A stretch of DNA of 24,000 nucleotides from Balneola sp. (GTDB taxonomy: Bacteria; Bacteroidota; Rhodothermia; Balneolales; Balneolaceae), in contig JBDVIC010000002.1 in assembly GCA_039962805.1 (NCBI GenBank), positions 132,263-156,262 of the forward strand, read 5' to 3'. The position numbers and the translations under genes are program-made. The notes beneath the pieces are model-generated. The model ran no database searches and had not been told where the DNA came from. It worked only from the letters and a program-made list of their open reading frames with translations. This document shows, piece after piece, positions 12,484 through 24,000 of this stretch; position 1 is the first letter of the stretch, and every line of letters begins with the position of its first letter.

Positions 12484-12511
12484 GCTAACTAGAAAAAATT
12501 ATTTAAGTAAA

Positions 12512-12543
12512 AGCTCTGATAAATCATCAGGGCTTTTTTTTTT
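12512..12543 (+). terminator. rho-independent terminator between the convergent pdh operon and the MotB-like gene
   Basis: Stem agctctgat / atcagggct (one G-T wobble), loop aaatc, then a run of 9-10 T. On the other strand only a short U-tract follows, so it mainly terminates the + strand operon. Confidence 0.65.
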
Positions 12544-12548
12544 GAGGC

Positions 12549-14258
12549 TTATTTAACTCGCTCGATAAGATAAATGATAGAGCTGAGGTCGGAGCTATCA
12601 CGGCTAAAAGTATTGTATAAGGATAGTATTTCTTCCCAATTAGAAAATGGTCGAGATACTAAATAATACCTGTTATTATCATATAATTTGATGCTACTCT
12701 CCAGACCCATTTCAGCTTTTATTCTTTGGGCGAGTATATCTGCATCGTTTCTATTTGAAAATGATGCTATTTGGAGTTGATATAAAAAAGTGTACTCAGA
12801 TACAGATTCAGGATCATACTTAATAAAAGCATTATTAAGCCCATCAAAACTCTTAATTTCTTGTAGTCTCTGTTCTATCCTCCTTCTACTAGAAATGGGC
12901 TTTGTAAGCACAGAATAAGCTTGGAGTGACATCTGGTTAATCTCAGCATCTATATCAAAATCAGTAGCTATCGTTTCTTTAAAATTAAGAGCATTTTGTT
13001 CATTTTGGAAAAAGCCCAACTGAATTTGATAAGTTATAGGTAAGGGACGTTTAGATGTATTTTCGTAGCATTGCTGAATTACCCCAGTAACTAAATCCTC
13101 ATCTACTTTGCTAATTATATCTTCCTGTATACTTAAAATGTCAGAAAAAGAGCCTTTGCTAGCCGTCCGAACGGAAAACAAACGATTATTATAGGTGATA
13201 TCAAAAGTGTAACCGGTTTGACGCTCAGCTTCATCTGCAGCATTTAGGCTTTGTATAAAAGATTCAAAGTTCCCCAACTGAACTGCATAGGAACATCCGG
13301 CTGCATCTGTATCAACTTTTCTAGGAGTAGTTGTTGATGTGTTCTCTGTATTTTGAGGTGTATTTACAGGTTGAGTTACAGAAGCGCTGGTATTCTCATC
13401 ATCTGAAAACTCAGGATCGGAATTGGTTGGTTCATTCTCAGTATCATTTTCATCAACTTCAGCGGCAATATTCTCAACTATGTTTTCAAGAATAGCAGAA
13501 CTATCAGTATTGATCTCTGATTCATTGGATAAAAGTACAGAATCTGCTCCTGCAACTGATTCCGGGTTGGAATAATATAAACGCAAGACTACGCGTCTAT
13601 TCTCATCCTTATTAGCCGGCATTGGATTTCCCTGATCATCGAAATTAACTAATGGACGTGAGTCAGCATAGCCAGAAGCTTTTAATCGTTTTTGAGGAAG
13701 CCCCATTTCGCTAAAATAACGAACAATATTAGAAGCTCTGGAAGTAGATAATTCCCAATTTGATGGAAATGAGGAGGAGGAAATAGGAACGTTGTCTGTA
13801 TGTCCTTCTACATCAATTTCGAAATCATTATATTCAATGAGTTGAAAAGCAGCCAATACCCGATTAAGTATTTGCGTTGCATCGTCCTGTAATTGAGCAC
13901 TTCCCGAATTGTAAAGATCATCACTTTTAAACCTTATTCTTACATCGTTAAGCTCTCTAAATATCTCCAATTGCCCCGCATCAATTTCCGGTTTTAATAG
14001 AATTTCGAGTTCTTCTTTTATTTTTTCTATAGGGGTAGTGATAAACTCTGATTGGTCATCAGATGATTTGAATAAATCCGAAACAGAGAATGATTCTCCA
14101 TTATTCAATTCTGAAAATGAAAGTAAAATCACAAGAAAACCAAGAAGTATAGTAATTATATCAAGATAACTAACCTGCCAACTGTCATCATCTTCCGGTT
14201 CCATTTCCTGTTTAGGAAATAGTGAGTTCTTTTTGCTATTTACGTGATCTGAATCCAA
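12549..14258 (-). CDS. MotB-like stator protein: TM with conserved Asp, OmpA-type peptidoglycan-binding domain, three C-terminal SPOR-like repeats
   Basis: 569 aa, TTG start 13 nt after the MotA-like stop. SWQVSYLDIITILLGFLVILLSF matches the MotB pattern W-x-[VT]-[ST]-Y-x-D-h-h-T-h-L at the cytoplasmic end of the TM (Asp33, codon 14160-14162). The OmpA-like core is EGHTDNVPI...SNWELSTSRASNIVRYF...ASGYADSRPL...NRRVVL. An acidic low-complexity linker follows. Then come three repeats with the SPOR pattern Y-x-[VIL]-Q-[LI]-[GA]-x-F...A, e.g. YQLQIASFSNRNDADILAQRIK...YYLVSRPFSNWEE. Confidence 0.85.
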   Translation of the reverse strand: MDSDHVNSKKNSLFPKQEMEPEDDDSWQVSYLDIITILLGFLVILLSFSELNNGESFSVSDLFKSSDDQSEFITTPIEKIKEELEILLKPEIDAGQLEIFRELNDVRIRFKSDDLYNSGSAQLQDDATQILNRVLAAFQLIEYNDFEIDVEGHTDNVPISSSSFPSNWELSTSRASNIVRYFSEMGLPQKRLKASGYADSRPLVNFDDQGNPMPANKDENRRVVLRLYYSNPESVAGADSVLLSNESEINTDSSAILENIVENIAAEVDENDTENEPTNSDPEFSDDENTSASVTQPVNTPQNTENTSTTTPRKVDTDAAGCSYAVQLGNFESFIQSLNAADEAERQTGYTFDITYNNRLFSVRTASKGSFSDILSIQEDIISKVDEDLVTGVIQQCYENTSKRPLPITYQIQLGFFQNEQNALNFKETIATDFDIDAEINQMSLQAYSVLTKPISSRRRIEQRLQEIKSFDGLNNAFIKYDPESVSEYTFLYQLQIASFSNRNDADILAQRIKAEMGLESSIKLYDNNRYYLVSRPFSNWEEILSLYNTFSRDSSDLSSIIYLIERVK

Positions 14259-14271
14259 CTATACTATCTGC

Positions 14272-15069
14272 CTAAAACTGTTGACTTGTTCGGTGCATAT
14301 GTGCTTTTAGCTTGTCATATATCTGTAGGGAAGACTTTTGTTGTTGAATCAGAAGTATACCCTCTAGAATTAATTTCTCTCTGAAGAACTGAAGAGAGGC
14401 AATGTTATTCATTTTCTTTGCCATAGGTACGAAAATGAAATTCCCAATAAGAATTCCATAAAGGGTGGTCATTAATGCCGCAGCTAACCCAGTTAATAAA
14501 GAATCCATTTCGTTAAATCCTGAAAGAAGAACAATAAGCCCAAACAAAGTCCCCAACATGCCAAATACAGGAGCTGTTTTTCCCATACTTGCTATAATTT
14601 GGTTGATCTGTTGTTGCCTAGTATAAGTTTCCTGGATGTTTATTTCGGCAAGTTCACGAAGCTCTTCTGTAGAATAATTTGTATCCAAAATTGAGAACAA
14701 ATACCCTTCAAAACGGTTGCTATATTCTTCACTTAGTTCTGAAACTGCTTTTATTTTATCAGCTCGTATTCTTTTTTGCCATTCAAGAATCTTTTCAATG
14801 TCTTGCTCTAATAAGCTATCATCAATATTGCTATGAGAAAAGAGGCGAGTGCTTTCTCCAAGAGCTTTAATTACTTTTTTGAATGGGAAACTTATAAATA
14901 CACTAGCTGAAATTCCGCCAAATACAATAGCGAGACTTGGTAAATTCAAGAACTCATATTTAGACGGTACTATATTATATTGAGCGAAGCCTGTCACTAA
15001 TAATGCCCCCCACACTAAGATGATTAAGGAGAGTAAGAAACTAAGTATATTTAAAAATGAAGTACGCAT
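14272..15069 (-). CDS. MotA/PomA-like proton-channel stator protein (MotA_ExbB family, 4 TM)
   Basis: 265 aa. Two N-terminal TMs, a ~100-aa charged cytoplasmic loop, then TAPVFGMLGTLFGLIVLL and LAAALMTTLYGILIGNFIFVPMAKKM, which match the MotA/ExbB channel core including both conserved Pro positions. The 4-TM topology fits MotA rather than 3-TM ExbB/TolQ. Confidence 0.85.
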   Translation of the reverse strand: MRTSFLNILSFLLSLIILVWGALLVTGFAQYNIVPSKYEFLNLPSLAIVFGGISASVFISFPFKKVIKALGESTRLFSHSNIDDSLLEQDIEKILEWQKRIRADKIKAVSELSEEYSNRFEGYLFSILDTNYSTEELRELAEINIQETYTRQQQINQIIASMGKTAPVFGMLGTLFGLIVLLSGFNEMDSLLTGLAAALMTTLYGILIGNFIFVPMAKKMNNIASLQFFREKLILEGILLIQQQKSSLQIYDKLKAHMHRTSQQF

Positions 15070-15078
15070 ATATTAGTT

Positions 15079-15588
15079 TTAATTAGGTTTTCTGTCTGGG
15101 AATTCATCAATCAGGCCTTGTCTTTTTAATTCTTCAACAATTAAGGGGGAAGGAGGAATGGGTAAATCTTTATCTAGATCGAGGGCTTGTCTCCAATATG
15201 TAACAAAATTTTCTATTGAACCTAATCCTAAATAAATACTGCCTTTCAACGCTAAGATATCTGCCGTTTGTTTAATGCTTGCAGCTACATTTATTAAGGC
15301 AAGGGCTTCTTGAAATTCATTGTTATAGAATTTTTGTTGAGCAGAGATGTAAAGTGAAGTTATTCTATTAGCTTGTATTTGATGGGTTTTATAGAGCTCA
15401 TCTTTATACAACTGCTCTAATGAGTCTCTACGGGCTTCTTCTTTTAGAACCAAAGGATCTACCGTACTTGTATCTGCCTGGATGGTATCACTGGTTTCCG
15501 GTGAGGCAGGAAGTGAATTATCCATAGCTTCTTTAGAACTTCCACAACCTGTTACAAATGTAAGAGAAAGCCCAAAAAGCATTATCAA
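15079..15588 (-). CDS. TPR-like lipoprotein
   Basis: 169 aa. Short signal sequence ending in lipobox FVTG|C. The start is TTG 15588 or ATG 15582. The C-terminal half is helical-repeat/TPR-like (FYNNEFQEALALINVAASI...ALKGSIYLGLGSIENFVTYWRQALDLD) and paralogous to the C-terminus of the 997-aa OM protein. Confidence 0.6.
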   Translation of the reverse strand: MIMLFGLSLTFVTGCGSSKEAMDNSLPASPETSDTIQADTSTVDPLVLKEEARRDSLEQLYKDELYKTHQIQANRITSLYISAQQKFYNNEFQEALALINVAASIKQTADILALKGSIYLGLGSIENFVTYWRQALDLDKDLPIPPSPLIVEELKRQGLIDEFPDRKPN

Positions 15589-15610
15589 AGCTTTATTCGA
15601 TATGTAGAAA

Positions 15611-17443
15611 TTAGTCTTGATCTTGCTTACTCAATTTTAAGGATTCTCTTAGTGAACTCACTAAAATCATTTTTGCTTTTCCTGTGTTTTCCTGCTCGCC
15701 ATCCAATTCCTCTAGTTCTAAGCGGATAAGTTGTTGCTCTCGCTTTGGTCTACCTGTTAATATTTTTTCTTTGGATATGTTATCAAGTCCCACTAAAGCT
15801 TCTAACAATGTAGATGTATCGATAGATTCGATTCCATTTTTTATTACTTCTTCATCAAGCTCAGGAATCTGGTCAATAGTAAAGAATTCTCTTTCAAGAA
15901 TATCACCAATAGGAGAACCGGTAGACTTTAACTGTTCTATATATTGCTTTTGTTCATCAACTGGTAAGTTTTCAAGAATTGGAAGGATATTTTCAACTCC
16001 ATAATCCTGTTGCTGTACATTATCTCTTACTTTAACCGCTTTCTCAAACAGGTTACCAGAAATAAGGCTTTGCTCCTTGTATGAAACGGTATGAAGAGTA
16101 GACATTTTGAGCATTATTTCTGCAGCTCTGGAGCGTTCAAAAGAGTTTAGAATAGAAGCTCCTTTTTCTTGTGGTAAATAGTCAAGGATTAAAGCTGCAC
16201 TTACATTATTCTCAGTTTTAATAAGCTCAGAAATCAAATTATCCGGTAAGTGAGTTAAGAACTTAAACAAACCAAGCTTAGCATGTTTCTTGGTAGACTT
16301 AGCATCCGTTTCTTCATCTTCTATGATTGAATTAAAATATTTAGCTGCTCTATATTTTTCATCAATCGACATTGCCTCTAAGTTAGTAATAGCATTAGCT
16401 ATTATGGCATATTTTTCTTCATCAAGATGATTATGAATCAGTTTAAGTGAGCTTTGATCAATAGCAGAAATGACTTCAGCAACATTCTTAGGACCATTTT
16501 TAGGATCGCTTTCAATCCAAAATTCAAATACCAGTGCTACTTCTTGTGGGTATTTGAAGAAGTTCTCAGAAACTAATTCAAATTCTGTTGCAATATCACG
16601 AGACTTCTCTTTACTGCTTCCATGAAAAGACATATTGCTGTCAGGGTTTAGGCTCCCTTCAACAGTTATATCACTTTTAATATTATCTCTTTGCGACTTT
16701 ACACTGGCTTGTTCTTTTGGTTTTCTGAAATAGCCCACGACAAGCAAGCCAACTAAAAAGACTCCCATAAGAATTATTTCTACGGTATAGTCTTTAAAAG
16801 AGGAAAGAAGGCTTTTAGGCTCGGGGTCTTCTAAAGTAATTACGGATGTAGGCTTGAAACTAGGATCAGGAATGGCAAGCTGAGTAATGTTTATCACATC
16901 TCCCCGAGCTAAATCAACTTTAGCTGCAAAACCGGTTACACGTCGCATAAAATCTAAATCGGTATCAGAAAGAGATGTATCGGCATAAACATTAACTGCC
17001 AAACTATTAAGTTTCAAACTTTTTACGGTGTTCCTGCTCAACACTGCTTCCGGTGATTGAGAAGCAGGTTGATTATTTTGAAGGTTTTCCTCAGGAAGGA
17101 AGGGTAGACCCGGCATAAACGTGTTTTGAGGTCTTCTGTTTACTACTTGATTATCAGTGCTTTGAAAAGTTTCTTCAACGAATTCTGCATCAATGTTCAC
17201 ATCAACAAAAAACTTTTTCCTATCAAAGTGATTGGATAATATTTGAATGATTTGAGAATCGTAGGCTTGTTCTAGAGATGCAATTTGAAGATCACCAGAT
17301 TGAGTTGAAGCATTTGACTGGGCAAAAGTATCACTAGGTATTACACAGAGTAATAACAGAGCTACTAGTAGATTTCTTAATGAAGAATAATTTCTCACGA
17401 CTTGTTTAATCAACATAAATATTTCGGACAACCTAAAAATCAT
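15611..17443 (-). CDS. membrane-anchored FliG-like rotor protein with a periplasmic FliF/YscJ-like (ring-building-motif-like) domain
   Basis: 610 aa. Signal peptide/TM1 (LLVALLLLCVIPSDTFA|Q), ~175-aa periplasmic part, TM at aa 219-238 followed by basic RKPKEQ (cytoplasmic side). aa ~295-605 resemble the FliG N/M/C armadillo domains. ENNVSAALILDYLPQEKGASILNSFERSRAAEIMLKMSTLHTVS compares with the FliG middle EHPQtiAliLsyL-p-qAa-vL--lp-e-q-ev--Ria-m--vs. FFTIDQIPELDEEVIKNGIESIDTSTLLEALVGLDNISKEKILTGRPKREQQLIRLELEEL compares with FliG_C F-F-dl--ld-r-iq-ll-evd---L--ALkga-----ekf--nmS-Ra---l--dl. Alternative start ATG at 17416. Confidence 0.72.
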   Translation of the reverse strand: MIFRLSEIFMLIKQVVRNYSSLRNLLVALLLLCVIPSDTFAQSNASTQSGDLQIASLEQAYDSQIIQILSNHFDRKKFFVDVNIDAEFVEETFQSTDNQVVNRRPQNTFMPGLPFLPEENLQNNQPASQSPEAVLSRNTVKSLKLNSLAVNVYADTSLSDTDLDFMRRVTGFAAKVDLARGDVINITQLAIPDPSFKPTSVITLEDPEPKSLLSSFKDYTVEIILMGVFLVGLLVVGYFRKPKEQASVKSQRDNIKSDITVEGSLNPDSNMSFHGSSKEKSRDIATEFELVSENFFKYPQEVALVFEFWIESDPKNGPKNVAEVISAIDQSSLKLIHNHLDEEKYAIIANAITNLEAMSIDEKYRAAKYFNSIIEDEETDAKSTKKHAKLGLFKFLTHLPDNLISELIKTENNVSAALILDYLPQEKGASILNSFERSRAAEIMLKMSTLHTVSYKEQSLISGNLFEKAVKVRDNVQQQDYGVENILPILENLPVDEQKQYIEQLKSTGSPIGDILEREFFTIDQIPELDEEVIKNGIESIDTSTLLEALVGLDNISKEKILTGRPKREQQLIRLELEELDGEQENTGKAKMILVSSLRESLKLSKQDQD

Positions 17444-17451
17444 TGATTCTC

Positions 17452-20445
17452 TTAATCCTCTGGTTGAGTTTTAATTATTTGATCCAATACTTCTATCTCA
17501 GGAATAACGATTTCAGGATTAAATTCGGCAGCCAAATCCCAATTCTTTTGTGCTTCAGCTTTATTACCATTTAAATAATTCAGACTTCCTTTTAAGGCAT
17601 ACCCTTGAGCGGTTTCAAACAACGCCAACGATTCGTTAACAAAAGTTAAAGCTCTATCAATATTTCTATTGTAAAAAGCCGTTTGTGCTTGAATAATTAA
17701 ACGTAGGGCATTATCTACATCCTTATCTAGCTTTTCTTCAAGTTCAATTATTTCTGCACTTTCTTTTACGCTAGCTATTATAGATTCAGTTGAAATAGTA
17801 TTTACTTGTTCTGGTTCAAAATCTTCTGGTACGATCATGAATTCTAAGCCTTCAACAAAATCACCATCCGCTAAAGCTTTGATATCAAAACTAACTTTAC
17901 TCGGTAAAGATTTTGAGTTTAATATGTTCAGTTGGGAAGGGTCAATGGATAGTTCATAATTTCCGGGGGGAATTTCATAAGCATAAAAGCTACCGTCTGA
18001 GAAGGTCCGTAATTCCTGAACAGTATTTTGATCTATATTATTTAGAAATAATCTGATCCCTCCAATACCATCTTCTGTTTCTGCGTCAAAACGACGATTT
18101 ACAACACCTTCAATTATACCAGTGGAATAAAACGGTACATCAATTGGTTTAAAATAATTTGGATCAGAGATCACCCCAAATTTTTCTTGTTTAGGTACAA
18201 GCAGGGGATTCTGAATGGCACCTTTATTGATCTCCATATTATATTTGAAATAAGGCTGCATTTGCGTGATATAGGTAATGCCATTTTTCGAGGTTGTAGA
18301 CCCCGTTCTATCTAAACGTATAGCATTATTTTTGATCAATTCGTCGCCCTCTGAGAATTTCTCATCTCCATCATAATCCACGAATAATCTAACAGCCGCT
18401 GCAGAACGACCAACTTGATTCCGGCTAGTTAGGAAAAGATTATTGTTATTGGCATCGTAACCTATAGATCCACGAACGGTATTTGTAACTGAACTAGAGC
18501 TTCTGATATTTCTATAACGAGAATTGACTCTGGTTTTATTAAAGTCGATTACAATGCTGGCTGAAATGGAGTTATAATTAAATCTAAAATTTCTTGCTAC
18601 GTTAAGTTGAATATTTCCCTTTTTGAAGACTTTTCGAGAAAGAAAAAACTGAATGTCATCCAGCTCACTAGAAGTTGGTAGAAAAGAGATCTCTCCACGT
18701 GCAAACATTCCATGAAAGACCTTAGGAGTGGTATTGGTTCTTGGGAAATTGTATGTAAGTGAAAAATTAGCGGAAGCATTTTCACTCAGCTCAAAAAAAT
18801 CATTTGTCGTATTCGAGTTGCTAAAGCCAGTTCTAACATTAAATCGCCCTAGCCTGGTACTTAGATCTACTCTATATCTTGAAATAGGACGAGGTTCACG
18901 TTCAATTCGAGAACCAAATAACCGAATGTTTAGAGGGATATTACCAATCAAAAAAGGATAGAATACACTTCCCTGTAATTCTTGATCATAATTTCCTGAG
19001 TTATAAATTCTATTTTGTGCAAAGTAATTAGTATACGCTAAACTAATACTGGCAGCATTTGCTAAGATTGTACTACCACGAGTTCGAACAAAAGCATCAT
19101 TAGCAATTTCTGTACTAAATAAATACCTATTAAATAAACGAGCTGAAAGACCGCCTGTAAAAGTAGGTAAGGAGGTATTTAAAGACTCAAAATATTCAGC
19201 TCCGGCCCTTGCAGTGAGCCAATTTGATATACCAATTACAGTATTGGCCTGGGCTGTTAATCCACGCTCCTGAGTGCCTATAAGTGGGTTTTCGAGTTCG
19301 CCAAGATCTATATTGTAGTTGATTTCACCTGGAGGAAGAAAAGAAAAAGGAACCTGTATTCTCTTGGAACGTTCTACAACTTGACCTGTAGGACCAAATA
19401 TTTTTATATCGTATGCTGAAGTACCGTAAGTAAGGGGGGTGATAAAACGGTAATTGCCTGTTTCATCAGTTTCTTGAAAATCAGCTAGCGTATTATTGAT
19501 GTAAAGCTCAACTTCTGAGCGAGAAAATGTATTTCCTTGGATCACAAATTCATCGTATAGTCTTCTTGGCTCAAGAGGCTGGTTGGTAATTTTTATACCT
19601 CGATAAGGATTGTTTAATATACCGGATGAGCTTGTTTGTCCTGCGGTAACACTACTAATAACAGGACTATCTGTAATTGCATACCTCCAACGTAAATTAC
19701 TTGTAGTAACGTTCGAAGCATCAGCTGAATATGCGCCATTTATAGCTCCCTGAACATCTCCACCGAGAGCTTCTGCTCCAATAGCTGTATTAAATAGAAA
19801 GATACTAGATTCATCACTGGTGATAGCAGATAAGTTATAATCTAAAAATCCTAAACCAAGAATTTTGCGATCTCTACCGTACTCGACCGGGTAATTTAAA
19901 TTAAGCGTTCGGTCATTGCGTTGGATTTGCTGGCGTCTATTTTGACGAATAAGCTTTTGAACTACCGGGATGTTTTTATCAGTTTCAAGAAGAAGTGCTA
20001 GATTGTTGAAATCGACATCAAAATCTAAACCAAATAACTCATTAAAAATGGAAATTTCTAGGTAATAGTCTAAATCTTTGATCAGAAAATCATCGCTGGT
20101 TAACGAGAGGTTTTTGTTACCGGATGAAGCTTGAAAAGTACTTAAATTTATTTGATAAGGTGTTTCCTCTTCTAAGAAATTACCATATAGAACCACACCT
20201 GCATTAAGCCTTGTGTTATGATCTATTTCAAGCAGTTGAAATACTTCTTTGTAAGGAATGTAGAATGTATCATTTTTATAATATGCTATTACCACAGAAT
20301 TAATGGCACTTCTATATGAAAATGAAAGATACACTTCTATTTCATCGTCGCTTGTAGATTGAGCCTTTAGAGAACTAAAAGCCCCATAACACACAAGCAA
20401 ACAAAGAAAGTTGATAGAAATATATTTCCATTTTCTTGAGGTCAC
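17452..20445 (-). CDS. large outer-membrane beta-barrel protein in the usher position (usher-like assembly pore candidate) with CarboxypepD_reg-like domains and a C-terminal TPR-like module
   Basis: 997 aa. GTG start overlaps the upstream stop (GTGA at 20442-20445). Signal peptide ...SSLKA|Q. The long central region has alternating beta-strand patterns rich in Y/F/N/R/G. There are two carboxypeptidase-regulatory-like beta-sandwich signatures (TDETGNYRFITPLTYGTSAYDIKIF; RTFSDGSFYAYEIPPGNYELSI). A TPR-like tail occupies aa ~914-985. Homology to PapC/FimD ushers is NOT established by eye. Confidence 0.5.
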   Translation of the reverse strand: MTSRKWKYISINFLCLLVCYGAFSSLKAQSTSDDEIEVYLSFSYRSAINSVVIAYYKNDTFYIPYKEVFQLLEIDHNTRLNAGVVLYGNFLEEETPYQINLSTFQASSGNKNLSLTSDDFLIKDLDYYLEISIFNELFGLDFDVDFNNLALLLETDKNIPVVQKLIRQNRRQQIQRNDRTLNLNYPVEYGRDRKILGLGFLDYNLSAITSDESSIFLFNTAIGAEALGGDVQGAINGAYSADASNVTTSNLRWRYAITDSPVISSVTAGQTSSSGILNNPYRGIKITNQPLEPRRLYDEFVIQGNTFSRSEVELYINNTLADFQETDETGNYRFITPLTYGTSAYDIKIFGPTGQVVERSKRIQVPFSFLPPGEINYNIDLGELENPLIGTQERGLTAQANTVIGISNWLTARAGAEYFESLNTSLPTFTGGLSARLFNRYLFSTEIANDAFVRTRGSTILANAASISLAYTNYFAQNRIYNSGNYDQELQGSVFYPFLIGNIPLNIRLFGSRIEREPRPISRYRVDLSTRLGRFNVRTGFSNSNTTNDFFELSENASANFSLTYNFPRTNTTPKVFHGMFARGEISFLPTSSELDDIQFFLSRKVFKKGNIQLNVARNFRFNYNSISASIVIDFNKTRVNSRYRNIRSSSSVTNTVRGSIGYDANNNNLFLTSRNQVGRSAAAVRLFVDYDGDEKFSEGDELIKNNAIRLDRTGSTTSKNGITYITQMQPYFKYNMEINKGAIQNPLLVPKQEKFGVISDPNYFKPIDVPFYSTGIIEGVVNRRFDAETEDGIGGIRLFLNNIDQNTVQELRTFSDGSFYAYEIPPGNYELSIDPSQLNILNSKSLPSKVSFDIKALADGDFVEGLEFMIVPEDFEPEQVNTISTESIIASVKESAEIIELEEKLDKDVDNALRLIIQAQTAFYNRNIDRALTFVNESLALFETAQGYALKGSLNYLNGNKAEAQKNWDLAAEFNPEIVIPEIEVLDQIIKTQPED

Positions 20446-21272
20446 CGTATAGTGAATTGGGTTGAGGTTGATACGGGCTCCATTTTAACAATATTTTCGC
20501 TAGAAACGTCGCTACGTTGTGTTTCAAAAATAACTTCAGCAGTATAAGTGCCTGCCGATAATCCTTGAATATCGACTTCTTGACTATGTGTACCATCAAA
20601 ATATATGGTAGTAGAACGGAAAGAGGATTTAACTACATTATTGTTAGCATCTTTCACATTAACAGTAATAGATCCAAGAAAAGGGGAGTTACCGCCTCGT
20701 TCTAGTTTGGTTCTTACTTCTACAAAACCATCATCAGTAAGCAGAGCCTCTGTTCCGAGTACATTAATATCAGTGGTTACAGTACCTTTTTTATAGTAAA
20801 GTCCAGTTATTTGCTCAATGGTTATGCCCACTCTTGCAGATACAGAATTGTCATTCTGTAATTCTACCGGCGGAGTTTGAGCAGTAGATCTGGTTTTAAT
20901 TCTTGCCCAGTAGGTACCATCATTTAGATTATTGGGAGGAGCAACGCGCAAACGTACTACTTGTCGTTGACCGGGAGTGAGAGTAAAGTTCCTTGGAAAA
21001 GACTGGACCCAAGTATGAGCAGAATGTTCCTCTTGTTGTTCCATGTCGTCATACACAATACTCCTACTTCCTTCCTCATCAGTTGCTGTGTATGCAAATA
21101 TAAACTCGATAGACACTTCCTGTGGTTCGTTTGACCCATTTAAAACCAAGTAGGTTCCAAAGCGAGTATTTTCTTCTATAAAGATGTTTGTTGGAGAGAT
21201 GGTGATTTGCCCTAATATGTTGGTAGAGCATAACATAAACACCCAAATGACAAGCGATAATGATTTTTTCAT
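20442..21272 (-). CDS. periplasmic PapD-like fimbrial chaperone candidate
   Basis: 276 aa, signal peptide ...NILG|Q. Beta-rich, two-domain size. ITISPTNIFIEENTRFGTYLVLNGSNEPQEV and SFPRNFTLTPGQRQVVRLRV resemble the PapD_N patterns (-P--f-l-pg--q-vRl-). It sits between the subunit genes and the usher-position gene. Confidence 0.6.
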   Translation of the reverse strand: MKKSLSLVIWVFMLCSTNILGQITISPTNIFIEENTRFGTYLVLNGSNEPQEVSIEFIFAYTATDEEGSRSIVYDDMEQQEEHSAHTWVQSFPRNFTLTPGQRQVVRLRVAPPNNLNDGTYWARIKTRSTAQTPPVELQNDNSVSARVGITIEQITGLYYKKGTVTTDINVLGTEALLTDDGFVEVRTKLERGGNSPFLGSITVNVKDANNNVVKSSFRSTTIYFDGTHSQEVDIQGLSAGTYTAEVIFETQRSDVSSENIVKMEPVSTSTQFTIR

Positions 21273-21357
21273 TTTCTGTAGATTAATTATATGAACGCTT
21301 TAAATTAACAAATTCGGGTGCAAATTATAATTGAATTAATGAGGGTACTTTTTACAT

Positions 21358-21390
21358 AAAAAAAAAGTCTCATTATTGAATAATGAGACT
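21358..21390 (-). terminator. rho-independent terminator/attenuator immediately after the 4th (putative major) subunit gene
   Basis: On the minus strand, stem agtctcatta / taatgagact (21366-21375 and 21381-21390), 5-nt loop, followed by 8 U (A-run at 21358-21365 on the + strand). It lies 19 nt after the stop at 21409. Confidence 0.6.
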
Positions 21391-21408
21391 TTTGTAAGAA
21401 ACTTAATC

Positions 21409-21921
21409 CTAGTCGTAAGTGATAGTAAAAGTCATTACGTTAGATGTTCCAAGAGAAGTACTGTACGCACCAGTTTGTGAAGGAGCAGCTAATTCACCTC
21501 CAACATCCAAAGTAATATCACCACCAGTAAGAGTTACAGTACCACCATCAGTTACTTCTGAGCCACCTAACCAAACAGAAGGAGTAAAAACGATAGGATC
21601 ATCATCTTCAGTTCTATTAAGAGTAGCGGTAGTCCAGTCAACAACAACGTCAACACCAGAAGTACCAACGATCTGTAAAGCACCAGCAGTTGCTCCATCA
21701 CCTAAGTTTGCTTCTGTCGCATCATCATTAGAATTAGCATCAATAATTGAGTTAGCGCCAGTTTGGATAGTTCCTAGAGCAACATCAGTAGGTGTTAATA
21801 CAAGTGCGGCTTCAACCTGAGCTGTTACAGCAACGTTAGCTGTTTCCTGAGCAAGAATGTTAGCAGAACCAACAAGGATCATCAAAGCGAAAGCAGTAAA
21901 TAATTTGTTTAAATTTTTCAT
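21409..21921 (-). CDS. secreted DUF4402/spore-coat-U-like fibre subunit, putative major subunit
   Basis: The ORF track starts at TTG 21960. ATG 21921 gives a canonical signal peptide, MKNLNKLFTAFALMILVGSANILA|Q. The mature protein is rich in T/G/A/V/D. It ends ...GGELAAPSQTGAYSTSLGTSNVMTFTITYD, matching the family C-terminal pattern G-x-Y...h-x-h-x-h-x-Y-[DE] at the very C-terminus. It has its own upstream intergenic gap and a downstream terminator. Confidence 0.65.
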   Translation of the reverse strand: MKNLNKLFTAFALMILVGSANILAQETANVAVTAQVEAALVLTPTDVALGTIQTGANSIIDANSNDDATEANLGDGATAGALQIVGTSGVDVVVDWTTATLNRTEDDDPIVFTPSVWLGGSEVTDGGTVTLTGGDITLDVGGELAAPSQTGAYSTSLGTSNVMTFTITYD

Positions 21922-22010
21922 GAGAGTAAATTTTGTTTTTTTGAGTTGTACAAATTTCAAACTTTCTCTGAGATATCACAAGTTAGAGTTTATTAATGAA
22001 GCGGAGTAGC

Positions 22011-22544
22011 TCACTCATAGTCAATAACAAGGCTTAGTTCTCCTTCATAAATACCGTTCGGTACATTCCCTACATCAATGAATCCATATATATAAATAAA
22101 CACCGTTTGCCACTCAAAACGGTCTTTTTGGGCGTTTTCGTTTACTTGGAGGTACATGTTATCACCACCAAAAGGGGTGGCTACATCAGGATTATTAGTG
22201 CCGGAATTGTTGTAAGCGGCCTGAAGATCTATGGGGATAGTTGCTTTTACTGCAGGATTAAGATGTTTTAATATATTTGTTGATTGCAATTCCATGCGAA
22301 GAATCTGGGAATTGATGGCAGTAACCGAAAATATACCCATACTAGGATCACCTAGATTGATATTTTTTGTACCTGAGTTTACAATGATATCACCGAAATT
22401 CAACTCAGATAGCACAGTGGCCTCGAGTTCAGGTTCTAACTCTATTTGTATGTTTATATACTGAGCAGTAGATGAAGTGCATAATAATAGGGAGAAGCAA
22501 AAAGCATAGAGGTAAAAGAGATATGAACAATGCTTCTTAATCAT
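22011..22544 (-). CDS. secreted DUF4402/spore-coat-U-like fibre subunit paralog
   Basis: 177 aa. ATG start overlaps the upstream gene by 8 nt. Signal peptide ...SSTA|Q. LNFGDIIVNSGTKNINL motif. C-terminus YIYGFIDVGNVPNGIYEGELSLVIDYE. Confidence 0.6.
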   Translation of the reverse strand: MIKKHCSYLFYLYAFCFSLLLCTSSTAQYINIQIELEPELEATVLSELNFGDIIVNSGTKNINLGDPSMGIFSVTAINSQILRMELQSTNILKHLNPAVKATIPIDLQAAYNNSGTNNPDVATPFGGDNMYLQVNENAQKDRFEWQTVFIYIYGFIDVGNVPNGIYEGELSLVIDYE

Positions 22545-23133
22545 AAATAATAGTAATGTCTATTTCAGCAGAGTAACTACCAGCATCAACGGTTCCAACA
22601 TTTAAAGATCCATACAAGTATAAGTAAGCAGTCTCATTATAAATTGAGGGATCATATCCATCATAAACCGGGGTAGGAGGTGGAGCGGGCGGCTCACTTG
22701 TTCTATAACGTATAGGGAATTGAGCAGTACCTGAATTAGCTACAACATTGACGATACGTGCTTGAGCTATATTATCACTCCCTCTATTAGCGTAAGCAGC
22801 TTCCAGAGTATAAGGGATACTGCAACTGGGGTCGCTGGTACAAGCAGGGTTTCCATTGAGCAAAAGTTTGCTATCCGCAGTGATAGTTAAAAAAACGTCT
22901 AAATATTTTACCCCGGTAATAGTGATCACTTTTGAGTTTGAGATACCAATATTGTTAGTACCACTACCGGAGATGATGGCGCCAAATTCAAAATCCGCTC
23001 CGGGATTTTGTTCAGCAACAGAAAGCGAATAGTTATAATAATCGCCAAAATCTATTTCTTGGCTGTGTACCGGTCTAATGCTTAATAAAAAGAGAAGGAT
23101 AAAGAGGGAATATGTTAAAGCTGATTTTATCAC
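22537..23133 (-). CDS. secreted DUF4402/spore-coat-U-like fibre subunit paralog with Cys pair and Pro-rich insert
   Basis: 198 aa. GTG start after a 3-nt gap (23134-23136) following the upstream stop. Signal peptide ...PVHS|Q. FEFGAIISGSGTNNIGI motif, CTSDPSC Cys pair, EPPAPPPTPVYDGYDP insert. C-terminus LYLYGSLNVGTVDAGSYSAEIDITIIYD. Confidence 0.6.
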   Translation of the reverse strand: MIKSALTYSLFILLFLLSIRPVHSQEIDFGDYYNYSLSVAEQNPGADFEFGAIISGSGTNNIGISNSKVITITGVKYLDVFLTITADSKLLLNGNPACTSDPSCSIPYTLEAAYANRGSDNIAQARIVNVVANSGTAQFPIRYRTSEPPAPPPTPVYDGYDPSIYNETAYLYLYGSLNVGTVDAGSYSAEIDITIIYD

Positions 23134-23136
23134 TAG

Positions 23137-23640
23137 TTAGATATAATCTATTTCGATTGTAAATTCACCTTCGTAGCTACCAGGCTTAGCTTGTTCCACA
23201 AAAACACGACCACCAACCCATATATAAAAATCTCCATCTGCATTAAAACTGAAACTCCTATTCTCAGCTCCAAGAACCTCAGAAGTCAACTGTTCGTCAA
23301 TATCATTTCCGGTTAGCTGATAAATAACACGAATTAAACCATCACCATTTATTTGGTTTAAGATCTGGTTAGGTTGAAAAGTGATACGAATCTCAGCATT
23401 TGGATTACCTGATGCGATCATATGTCCTGCGTTACCACTAGTAGCAGGAGGGATGAAAATTTCGTTATTAACAGGTTCTAAATTTGCTAACTGAATATTT
23501 TGCACAGTAACCATCTCAATAGCCTGTATAACTGTTGCTTCAATATTGATTTCAGCATTTACAGACCTTGAATTTGTTTGGGCTGTACTATTGATTGAAA
23601 ACACTAAAAATAATGCTGTAAACGAGATTAAGTATTTCAT
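23137..23640 (-). CDS. secreted DUF4402/spore-coat-U-like fibre subunit paralog (first gene of cluster)
   Basis: The ORF track starts at TTG 23673. ATG 23640 gives the signal peptide MKYLISFTALFLVFSINSTA|Q. C-terminus FYIWVGGRVFVEQAKPGSYEGEFTIEIDYI. Confidence 0.6.
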   Translation of the reverse strand: MKYLISFTALFLVFSINSTAQTNSRSVNAEINIEATVIQAIEMVTVQNIQLANLEPVNNEIFIPPATSGNAGHMIASGNPNAEIRITFQPNQILNQINGDGLIRVIYQLTGNDIDEQLTSEVLGAENRSFSFNADGDFYIWVGGRVFVEQAKPGSYEGEFTIEIDYI

Positions 23641-23762
23641 TCGTTGAGCTAATTTTTTCTTTAAATATTGCAATCTAATTGCTTATTAGCCAGTTAGTAT
23701 TTTTTAATAACAACGGATTAGAGCAAGAGTAAATTTCAAATAATAGTTTTAAACTACACTAC

Positions 23763-24000
23763 TTACTTAATTAGTGTAAACTTCTGGGTATAAACGCTAG
23801 AACCTGTAGTAAGTCGATAGAAATAAACCCCACTTGCAAGATTTTGGGCTTCAAAATTTATGTTATACTTCCCAGCAGAGAGGTTTTCATTAATAAGAGT
23901 ACTTACTTTTCTACCTAAGATGTCATAAATAATTAGGCTCACTTTAGATTCTACGTCTAATCCAAATGGAATTGTGGTAGATGGATTAAACGGGTTAGGG
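23763..24000 (-). CDS. 3' end of a gene for a T9SS-secreted protein (Por-secretion C-terminal sorting domain); 5' part lies outside the window
   Basis: My own translation of the minus strand (not in the ORF track because no start is in the window): PNPFNPSTTIPFGLDVESKVSLIIYDILGRKVSTLINENLSAGKYNINFEAQNLASGVYFYRLTTGSSVYTQKFTLIK*. It matches the T9SS CTD pattern NPFNP-T-I-F-L-----v-l-iyDilGr-V--l-------G-------------sGvYfyrl---------K--l-K. Stop codon at 23763-23765. Confidence 0.8.
   Translation of the reverse strand, partial: PNPFNPSTTIPFGLDVESKVSLIIYDILGRKVSTLINENLSAGKYNINFEAQNLASGVYFYRLTTGSSVYTQKFTLIK

Follow-up and report, generated by a model that had tools for sequence, protein, structure and literature searches.

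Why would a bacterium without a recognizable flagellum keep a flagellar-type rotor and stator in line with the genes of a chaperone-usher fiber? The question is posed by ten close-packed open reading frames (ORFs) of a Balneola sp., all on the minus strand and running from position 23673 down to 12549 of a 24,000-nucleotide (nt) stretch of contig JBDVIC010000002.1 (positions 132,263 to 156,262), the whole of which we analyzed and refer to as the window. The source genome (family Balneolaceae, 3.06 Mb) is 98.7% complete, and the nearest relatives of the window in the public genome collection are labeled Balneola sp., Balneolaceae. We divide the cluster into module A, the fiber part (subunits S1 to S4, a chaperone, and an usher), and module B, the motor part (FliFG, a TPR lipoprotein, MotA, and MotB). 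An initial annotation, made from the DNA letters, had recognized ten minus-strand genes here and proposed a trans-envelope machine in which a MotA/MotB-type stator acts on a ring of a FliG-like protein. Our analysis lends support to that proposal through conserved synteny, a TPR tail on the usher, a SPOR-domain fusion, and a complex prediction: the cluster would encode one trans-envelope apparatus, in which an ion-driven motor is coupled to an outer-membrane usher and its fiber.

A flagellar-type motor without a flagellum

The central component of module B is FliFG (15611 to 17443), a 610-aa protein that had been described as membrane anchored and FliG-like. Pfam models for all three FliG domains matched it above their cut-offs (FliG_C, 39.8 bits; FliG_M, 38.8 bits; FliG_N, 31.6 bits), while TIGR00207 gave only 55.8 bits against a cut-off of 226.7. 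From its N-terminus, which resembles a cleaved signal peptide, the chain continues into a periplasmic domain, a membrane helix (residues 212 to 239), a disordered linker, and the FliG N, M, and C domains (residues ~276 to 610). In the predicted structure (predicted local distance difference test [pLDDT], 73), the periplasmic domain (residues ~48 to 195; nt 16859 to 17302) is a single alpha-beta-beta-alpha-beta unit with two very long strands. Foldseek matched this part to the RBM3/S-ring/collar region of FliF (8z5v, 7d84, and 6sd1; E = 5e-5 to 4e-4) and the helical part to full-length FliG (3hjl, 8wiw, and 9n49; ~310 to 324 columns, E = 2e-7). Neither RBM1 nor RBM2 is present, and the Pfam family YscJ_FliF had no match. 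Judged from its model, the 610-aa protein is a natural single chain made of a reduced FliF (RBM3/collar) and a full-length FliG. It thus differs from flagellar FliF in having one RBM3-like domain behind a signal peptide and fused to FliG; FliF-FliG fusions in the PDB (8z4d and 8z4g) are engineered, whereas the fusion in Balneola is natural.

Residues of the FliG torque helix are largely kept. R568 and E576 of FliFG fall at the positions of R281 and D289 of Escherichia coli FliG (our numbering, from an alignment with Thermotoga maritima FliG), and among 19 FliFG orthologs and paralogs E576 is invariant and R568 nearly so. The position of E. coli D288 is a leucine in FliFG. The FliM-binding EHPQ motif has been lost, with T. 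maritima SEHPQT aligning to TENNVS. A second invariant feature, a P-G-L-P..P motif at residues 105 to 117, was found in all of the 19 aligned sequences (orthologs and paralogs); it lies in a loop between the long periplasmic strands, which is modeled with low confidence.

The two stator genes follow at the 3′ end of the cluster. MotA (14272 to 15069; 265 aa) matched Pfam MotA_ExbB (PF01618) with 67.4 bits, and its best NCBIfam models were MotP, MotA, and PomA (E = 9e-35 to 5e-30), all under their equivalog cut-offs. The same search separated it clearly from the energizers of outer-membrane transport (MotP, E = 9e-35, versus TolQ, E = 0.0022, and ExbB, E = 0.03 to 0.04). Among PDB sequences, only flagellar MotA and PomA matched at E ≤ 0.001, over the full length (best cover, residues 10 to 258; best E = 4e-22). 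By sequence comparison, MotA is a stator subunit of the flagellar type, not of the ExbB/TolQ type. MotB (12549 to 14258; 569 aa) carries a channel aspartate, Asp33, within SYLDIIT of its membrane helix, as read from the sequence, and matched MotB_plug (31.1 bits), OmpA (56.2 bits), and SPOR (46.9 bits). Behind the helix come the plug, an OmpA-like peptidoglycan-binding domain, a low-complexity linker, and C-terminal SPOR domains. The remaining gene of module B (15079 to 15588) encodes a 169-aa TPR lipoprotein, with a weak match to Pfam TPR_8 and a lipobox cysteine (Cys15) that is near-invariant in the alignment. Profile searches of FliG and MotA/MotB, which the initial annotation had put forward as a check on itself, thus came out in its favor, and its further assignments in this module (the TPR lipoprotein, and a MotB with a transmembrane Asp and an OmpA-type anchor) hold as well.

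In the flagellar motor, ion flow through peptidoglycan-anchored MotA5B2 pushes the torque helix of FliG and so turns the FliG/FliF ring. Module B shares with the flagellar basal body the FliG N, M, and C domains, the torque-helix charges, a FliF RBM3/beta-collar-like domain, a MotA of the MotA/PomA type, and a MotB with the membrane-helix Asp, the plug, and the OmpA-like anchor, and all of the sequence features required for the MotAB/FliG torque step are present in the cluster. It departs from the flagellar motor in the loss of the EHPQ motif, in the extra SPOR domains of MotB, and in having an usher as its outer-membrane partner.

The rest of a flagellum is missing. None of the Pfam families for FlhA, flagellin, FliM/FliN, FliF, or the rod was found in the 98.7%-complete genome, and no part of the type III export gate, rod, hook, filament, FliM/FliN, L ring, or P ring was found anywhere in it; the FliFG gene is the only FliG_C match. 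FlhA was absent from all 15 sampled genomes of the same genus, as was a canonical FliG. Other Balneolaceae genera do possess FlhA (11 of 11 genomes in one genus, g4). Flagellated relatives that have the cluster hold three classes of MotA, with 72 to 75%, 44 to 46%, and 27 to 31% identity to the MotA of the window. The first is the cluster's own and the second a paralog; the third sits in a chromosomal region with FlhA and a canonical 350-aa FliG. The possibility that the cluster merely holds displaced flagellar copies, which would have spoken against the initial annotation, can be set aside because the genome has no flagellar regulon and, in flagellated relatives, the MotA and FliG of the flagellum exist apart from those of the cluster. 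According to PMC5167729, which cites Urios 2006, Balneola vulgaris was described as a motile, flagellated species, a record at odds with the lack of FlhA in the 15 sampled genomes of the genus.

The fiber module and its linkage to the motor

Module A begins with four small secreted proteins: S1 (23137 to 23673, with an internal ATG at 23640 as an alternative start), S2 (22537 to 23133, with a proline-rich insert), S3 (22011 to 22544), and S4 (21409 to 21960, with an internal ATG at 21921). S1 scored 25.1 bits against Pfam DUF4402, just under the cut-off of 25.2, and the family was matched by 11 of 26 aligned members of the subunit family (best E = 4e-10). S2 and S3 were recognized from their ORFs and the paralog alignment, in which a C-terminal G.Y...I.Y motif is common to all four; S2 orthologs are conserved at 37 to 77% identity. 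The Atlas model of S4 resembled a DUF4402 cluster (template modeling [TM] score, 0.75) and, less closely, clusters of Csu/SCPU (spore-coat-U), CS1, and Fimbrial pilins (TM, ~0.54). Motif, profile, and modeled fold together support placing S1 to S4 in the DUF4402/Csu-like pilin-fold class, as had been proposed for these four paralogs, and S4 is the probable major subunit.

The chaperone (20442 to 21272; 276 aa) found no match in Pfam, including PapD, or in a PDB sequence-profile search, and the 997-aa usher (17452 to 20445) likewise found nothing in Pfam Usher or in the PDB search, so that both assignments rest on predicted structure. For the chaperone, the Atlas structure aligned with clusters bearing the name PapD chaperone at TM scores of 0.90 to 0.95, and with another cluster, 39% of whose members have PapD_N, at 0.79. 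At the level of the fold this is in keeping with the earlier description of a PapD-like periplasmic protein. For the usher, an AlphaFold2 model (pLDDT, 70) showed an N-terminal domain, a large beta-barrel with a plug (an inserted beta-sandwich), a prealbumin/CarboxypepD_reg-like domain, and a final helical TPR domain. The top 19 Foldseek matches of this model in the PDB were all FimD or PapC ushers (E = 1e-22 to 2e-9), and the protein that had been suggested as an usher from its position in the cluster can be taken as one. Its TPR tail (residues ~897 to 992; 17470 to 17757) is composed of helices in the model and is paralogous to the TPR lipoprotein of module B, as indicated by tblastn cross-matches with the TPR gene.

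On the basis of these models, module A is a very divergent, archaic Csu-like chaperone-usher system. Like archaic (sigma/Csu-type) pili, such as those of Acinetobacter, it has multiple small paralogs that are secreted and fall in the DUF4402/SCPU fold class, a chaperone whose fold is probably PapD-like, and an usher of the FimD/PapC fold with its N-terminal domain, plugged barrel, and C-terminal domain. In contrast to Csu-type systems, the Balneola proteins are too divergent for Pfam Usher and PapD, and the usher ends in a TPR tail (or, in sister loci, in SPOR domains) and is tied genetically, and by prediction physically, to an ion-driven motor of the inner membrane. Classical chaperone-usher assembly requires no inner-membrane energy and is the textbook case of an energy-independent process at the outer membrane.

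Gene spacing is tight along most of the cluster. S1 and S2 are 3 nt apart, S2 and S3 overlap by 8 nt (22537 to 22544), the chaperone and usher overlap by 4 nt (20442 to 20445), and the gaps between usher, FliFG, TPR lipoprotein, MotA, and MotB are 8, 22, 9, and 13 nt. Wider intervals flank S4: 50 nt before the full ORF, or 89 nt from its internal ATG, and 136 nt between S4 and the chaperone. These ORF coordinates reproduce the cluster and junctions of the initial annotation, with two adjustments: its S1 start at 23640 is the internal ATG of an ORF that reaches 23673, and its ~89-nt gap before S4 applies to the internal start. Inside the 136-nt gap, an intrinsic-terminator-like hairpin on the minus strand (21363 to 21393; 14-pair stem) is followed by a T run. 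Terminator-like hairpins after the major subunit gene are also found in Csu-type and classical pilus operons, and this one is likely an attenuator that sets the ratio of subunits to assembly machinery.

Modules A and B remain together across considerable divergence. All 12 related Balneola loci that extend over the whole cluster kept the ten-gene order, among species in which FliFG has diverged down to 46% identity; a thirteenth locus, L008, is truncated by the end of its contig, with just the four motor genes on it. The order was also kept in three other Balneolaceae genera, and an usher adjoins FliFG in two further families of the order (f2 and f6). The modules, whose adjacency could have been a matter of chance, are therefore linked across several genera and at least three families, as synteny comparisons here demonstrate computationally.

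When 401 genomes of the class were searched for the usher, two forms of this protein emerged. Ushers of ~1,000 aa match through the TPR tail, and by our reading FliFG adjoins them in ~54 sampled genomes. Longer ushers (1,140 to 1,570 aa) match only to residue ~880 to 920 and have no module B beside them. The TPR tail is thus found on the usher only where the motor is present, and ushers without module B lack it. Three partial FliFG matches lie beside or near a TPR-tailed usher (G141:C1:367799-368386, G253:C1:105984-106421, and G245:C1:247915-248355); two of the three have open frames of 293 to 298 aa, and these may be decaying copies or assembly breaks.

The motor-less ushers carry a different tail. 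In both of the motor-less loci that we retrieved, the usher ends in SPOR domains homologous to the tail of MotB. One of these (L048:8906-12433, in genome G025 of the same genus) has no motor genes and lies next to pdhC, as does the cluster in the window; the other (L049:6995-10507) is likewise without motor genes. The tail of a 1,175-aa motor-less usher consists of SPOR domains homologous to MotB residues 321 to 567. This arrangement suggests, from sequence homology, one periplasmic anchor (SPOR) attached to either the usher or MotB, in the manner of a Rosetta-stone fusion. Between S1 and the giant cargo gene, the usher-SPOR loci contain four additional small genes, for proteins of 134, 424 (DUF4900), 199, and 140 aa.

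The usher tree intermingles motor-bearing with motor-less forms, and its well-supported branches force at least seven changes between them. The SPOR tails of the motor-less ushers have 36% identity to each other and ~24% to any MotB tail, those of their nearest usher relatives included. A recent deletion from the motor form, as an origin of the usher-SPOR form, is not favored by these values. Two old alternative 3′ cassettes, swapped at one locus by recombination, would fit the sequence data better. Taken with the complex prediction below, the distribution of the TPR tail and the SPOR fusion make the two modules look physically and evolutionarily linked.

A complex prediction addressed the physical side of this link. 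For this job, the TPR lipoprotein served as the partner to be scored against the usher C-terminus and the periplasmic domain of FliFG. It scored 0.87, versus 0.00 for the best of three controls. A score of 0.87 was reached by 58 of 80 solved complexes and by 2 of 110 mismatched pairs, a calibration set from which the present job differs. Separate runs agreed in at least 65% of contacts, and the pLDDT of the partner was 82. The main interface joins usher residues 889 to 979 with lipoprotein residues 54 to 111 and 143 to 146. A minor contact places the lipoprotein against FliFG residues 105 to 115, within the invariant PGLP loop; with the usher tail replaced, the lipoprotein and the FliFG periplasmic domain scored 0.00, so that a direct contact between these two is not supported by the modeling on its own, the 0.00 score being no evidence against it. 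The prediction supports a role for the TPR lipoprotein as an adaptor that binds the TPR tail of the usher.

A proposed coupling of motor and fiber, and competing explanations

How might these parts work together? A Csu-like chaperone-usher system would build a thin DUF4402 fiber through the outer-membrane usher, and the TPR tail of the usher would dock, via the paralogous outer-membrane TPR lipoprotein, onto a minimal flagellar-type motor. We infer that FliFG forms a ring in the inner membrane with a periplasmic collar, and that peptidoglycan-anchored MotA/MotB act on this ring through the conserved torque helix. Ion flow through MotA/MotB would then turn or push the ring, and the resulting mechanical work would travel from the collar by way of the TPR adaptors to usher and fiber. 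We assign a probability of roughly 0.58 to such a coupling in general, that is, to a rotor/stator driven by the proton motive force and mechanically coupled to usher and fiber, and a much lower one to any specific output.

Most likely, in our view, the output is movement of the finished fiber, which might turn within the usher pore or be shifted along the surface and so serve motility or dynamic adhesion. Sister loci have the fiber system without the motor, and the motor is therefore not needed for fiber assembly; its dispensability favors an output on the finished fiber over a role in assembly. Of the outputs named in the initial annotation, energized export of the fiber loses ground with the many sister loci that have a fiber and no motor.

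A bolder form of this output, which we regard as doubtful, is a flagellum-like rotating appendage. Here the base of the fiber would be held in the FliF-FliG collar and spun by MotAB, with the usher pore as a bushing; the TPR adaptors would hold usher and ring on a common axis, and the stators would be anchored by the SPOR and OmpA domains. Such an appendage could explain how B. vulgaris came to be recorded with flagella while FlhA is missing from the 15 sampled genomes of the genus. If it exists, it would act as a rotary propeller or leg that needs no type III export apparatus to be made. Taken more widely, FliFG/MotAB may serve the Balneolales as a general motor of surface machines, in place of GldLM, which went undetected there.

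Several considerations weigh against a coupling of motor and fiber. All of the evidence is computational. The cluster has no rod-like shaft and no evident gene to carry torque across the periplasm, and the outer-membrane usher is not an obvious rotating part. The complex prediction passed chiefly between two paralogous TPR domains, so that generic TPR-TPR packing could explain it. The interleaving of motor-bearing and motor-less forms on the usher tree makes the motor dispensable and often swapped, and its coupling to the fiber could be loose. Module B also occurs beside other outer-membrane proteins and T9SS (type IX secretion system) cargo, and its primary client may not be the fiber.

This last point draws on the other settings in which the motor is found. 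Many Balneolaceae have a second paralogous motor set without an usher, comprising FliFG, a protein here called X357, a TPR protein, MotA, and a short MotB without SPOR domains; it is absent from the genome of the window. In L030 (7953 to 12998), where it lies directly downstream of rpoB-rpoC, its FliFG is 621 aa, and the set is also present in L031, L032, L035, L036, L037, and L041. X357 (357 aa) has a signal peptide and a beta-barrel-like C-terminal region ending in F. Its look-alikes in the Atlas, which we treat only as a lead, are LpoB/CsgG/TolB_N-like and outer-membrane-barrel proteins of Myxococcota and Bdellovibrionota. The idea that X357 is a fragment of an usher was rejected (hhalign probability, 0.2%). 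A distant family of the phylum (f48) has the same five genes in another order, and the X protein found there, a homolog of X357 (hhalign probability, 95.8%; E = 7e-9), is unrelated to the usher. In a further context, an usher-like protein is followed by FliFG, MotA, and MotB. A metagenomic contig (L058:3575-12971) encodes a 354-aa protein in the X position, a TPR protein, FliFG, an outer-membrane protein (TraF_2, 92 bits; PorP_SprF, 30 bits), a 583-aa unknown, and a PKD-rich giant; MotAB are not on this contig. Searching 1.84 billion representative proteins with a FliFG profile returned 212 clusters at E ≤ 1e-30, each match representing a cluster at 50% identity and most being full length (580 to 750 aa). 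The motor is thus an optional, self-contained cassette that pairs with different outer-membrane proteins.

The T9SS itself is close at hand in the window. Directly upstream of S1 on the minus strand lies the 3′ end (23763 to 24000) of a gene for a 2,499-aa T9SS cargo protein (L043:326-7825) with Laminin_G_3, DUF2341, Invasin_D3, and a C-terminal Por_Secre_tail, and behind it on the same strand is a second cargo gene (L043:7950-11228; 1,092 aa, Por_Secre_tail). A homolog of the 2,499-aa gene stands upstream of S1 in 11 of 11 Balneola loci that reach that far, and its product may function as an associated adhesin at the cell surface. The genome encodes the T9SS translocon SprA (1,484 bits). GldL (TIGR03513), GldM (TIGR03517, PF12081, and PF12080), and GldN (PF19841) had no match in the genome or the genus, a negative that cannot prove absence because the NCBIfam Gld models matched no control genome either; PF12081 matched 0 of 29 sampled Rhodothermia genomes versus all sampled genomes of several Bacteroidia families. 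Either the GldLM-type parts of the T9SS are very divergent here or another motor serves it. At the other end of the cluster, a bidirectional terminator-like hairpin (12509 to 12537, both strands) separates it from the convergent alaS and pdh genes.

Each of the competing explanations takes up part of this evidence. Perhaps the motor is a non-rotary energizer like Tol or Ton, in which MotAB and FliFG use the ion gradient to bring about conformational changes in the usher, such as plug opening or fiber retraction or release, without sustained rotation. Every characterized motor of the MotAB/ExbBD/TolQR family that works on outer-membrane proteins is generally known to act in this way, the cluster has no shaft gene, and the outer-membrane-anchored TPR adaptor is predicted to bind the usher tail. 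MotAB/TolQR-family motors are also combined with TPR proteins and outer-membrane beta-barrels in Myxococcus Agl-Glt gliding, in the Nfs spore-coat system, in Tol-Pal, and in Ton, as is generally known. Those systems differ from the present one in their TolQR/ExbBD-type stators, their TonB/TolA-like transducers, and their lack of a FliG/FliF rotor. In Balneola the stator is of the flagellar type, not of the ExbB/TolQ type, the FliG part with its torque helix is fused to a putatively ring-building RBM3/collar-like domain, which in flagella is the geometry of a rotor, and the cluster has no gene for a TonB- or TolA-like protein. This alternative, which the initial annotation had also raised, is weakened by these features, and we think it unlikely. 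Another possibility is that fiber and motor are merely neighbors, a fiber operon beside a separate FliFG/MotAB module with a task such as envelope maintenance or the sensing of septal peptidoglycan through SPOR. Each module does occur alone (usher-SPOR without the motor; the second motor type without an usher), and the terminator-like hairpin after S4 is compatible with separate units. Against this stand the gaps of only 8 to 22 nt from the usher through FliFG onward, the adjacency conserved across families, the complex prediction that passed its controls, and the SPOR tail, which is found on the usher in one form of the locus and on MotB in the other; only ushers adjacent to the motor, moreover, end in a TPR domain that is paralogous to its TPR lipoprotein. 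We consider mere adjacency very improbable.

The T9SS offers a different client. The motor might belong to a T9SS or gliding-like machinery, with FliFG, MotAB, the TPR protein, and an outer-membrane partner in place of GldLM/GldKN; it would secrete or propel giant T9SS adhesins, and the link to the usher would be a secondary recruitment. The giant Por_Secre_tail gene kept upstream of the cluster in Balneola points in this direction, as do the 1,617-aa Por_Secre_tail protein that directly precedes X383, TPR, MotA, MotB, and FliFG in family f48 (L047), the metagenomic contig on which FliFG is followed by the TraF_2/PorP_SprF outer-membrane protein and the PKD-rich giant, and the finding of SprA in a genome where the GldL, GldM, and GldN models match nothing. 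GldLM/PorLM with the GldKN/PorKN rings, known from the same phylum, resemble the present system as an ion-driven 5:2-class motor of the inner membrane whose action reaches across the periplasm to lipoprotein and protein parts at the outer membrane and serves surface adhesins; the closeness of the Balneola cluster to giant Por_Secre_tail cargo adds a genomic likeness. They differ in that FliFG has no homology to GldM, the stator is a true MotA/MotB, and the driven part would be a ring of the FliG/FliF type. Three Balneola genomes (G025, G027, and G063) have no FliFG at all, and G025 keeps the usher cluster and the giant cargo gene; since FliFG is missing there, the T9SS in genomes of this kind cannot depend on it. 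Moreover, the genome of the window has a single FliFG copy, which the TPR tail ties to the usher, and the Gld models may be too distant from the Rhodothermia versions to detect them. We regard the T9SS as an improbable primary client. Mechanical coupling of the motor to the usher and its fiber remains the reading that we prefer.

Three RNA-seq runs with the same species label had 0 reads on the stretch and hence provided no test of expression. A seawater run labeled metatranscriptomic, but flagged as probably DNA, yielded three contigs identical to window positions 20260 to 20536, 20868 to 21067, and 21272 to 21926. They are confined to the region of S4, the chaperone, and the beginning of the usher gene; they place the organism or a near-identical strain in seawater and are not readable as expression.

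A possible new use of the flagellar rotor

To our knowledge, every known use of a FliG/FliF rotor lies inside a flagellum. The initial annotation knew of no described system that joins a chaperone-usher fiber to a flagellar-type motor, and our literature search, from which most subscription journals were outside, found nothing on DUF4402 systems, non-flagellar FliF-FliG fusions, or MotAB with ushers. A survey of MotAB relatives that splits flagellar from generic ion transporters mentions no such system in its available portions (PMC12505986). We rate the architecture as categorically new, on support that is computational throughout.

If the proposed apparatus exists, it would represent a new class of trans-envelope machine, in which a natural FliF-FliG fusion and flagellar-type MotAB operate without a flagellum and are linked to an usher, and it may reveal a new route by which power from the inner membrane reaches the cell surface. 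A minimal rotor/stator of three proteins would be useful for studies of torque generation. A rotor and stator without the type III export core also bear on the origin or reuse of the flagellar motor. The presence or absence of the motor cassette at one and the same locus provides natural, isogenic-like contrasts from which its function could be approached. Considering that the FliFG profile matched 212 clusters at the threshold given above, FliFG appears to be a family that has gone unrecognized and yet is common in marine Balneolales.

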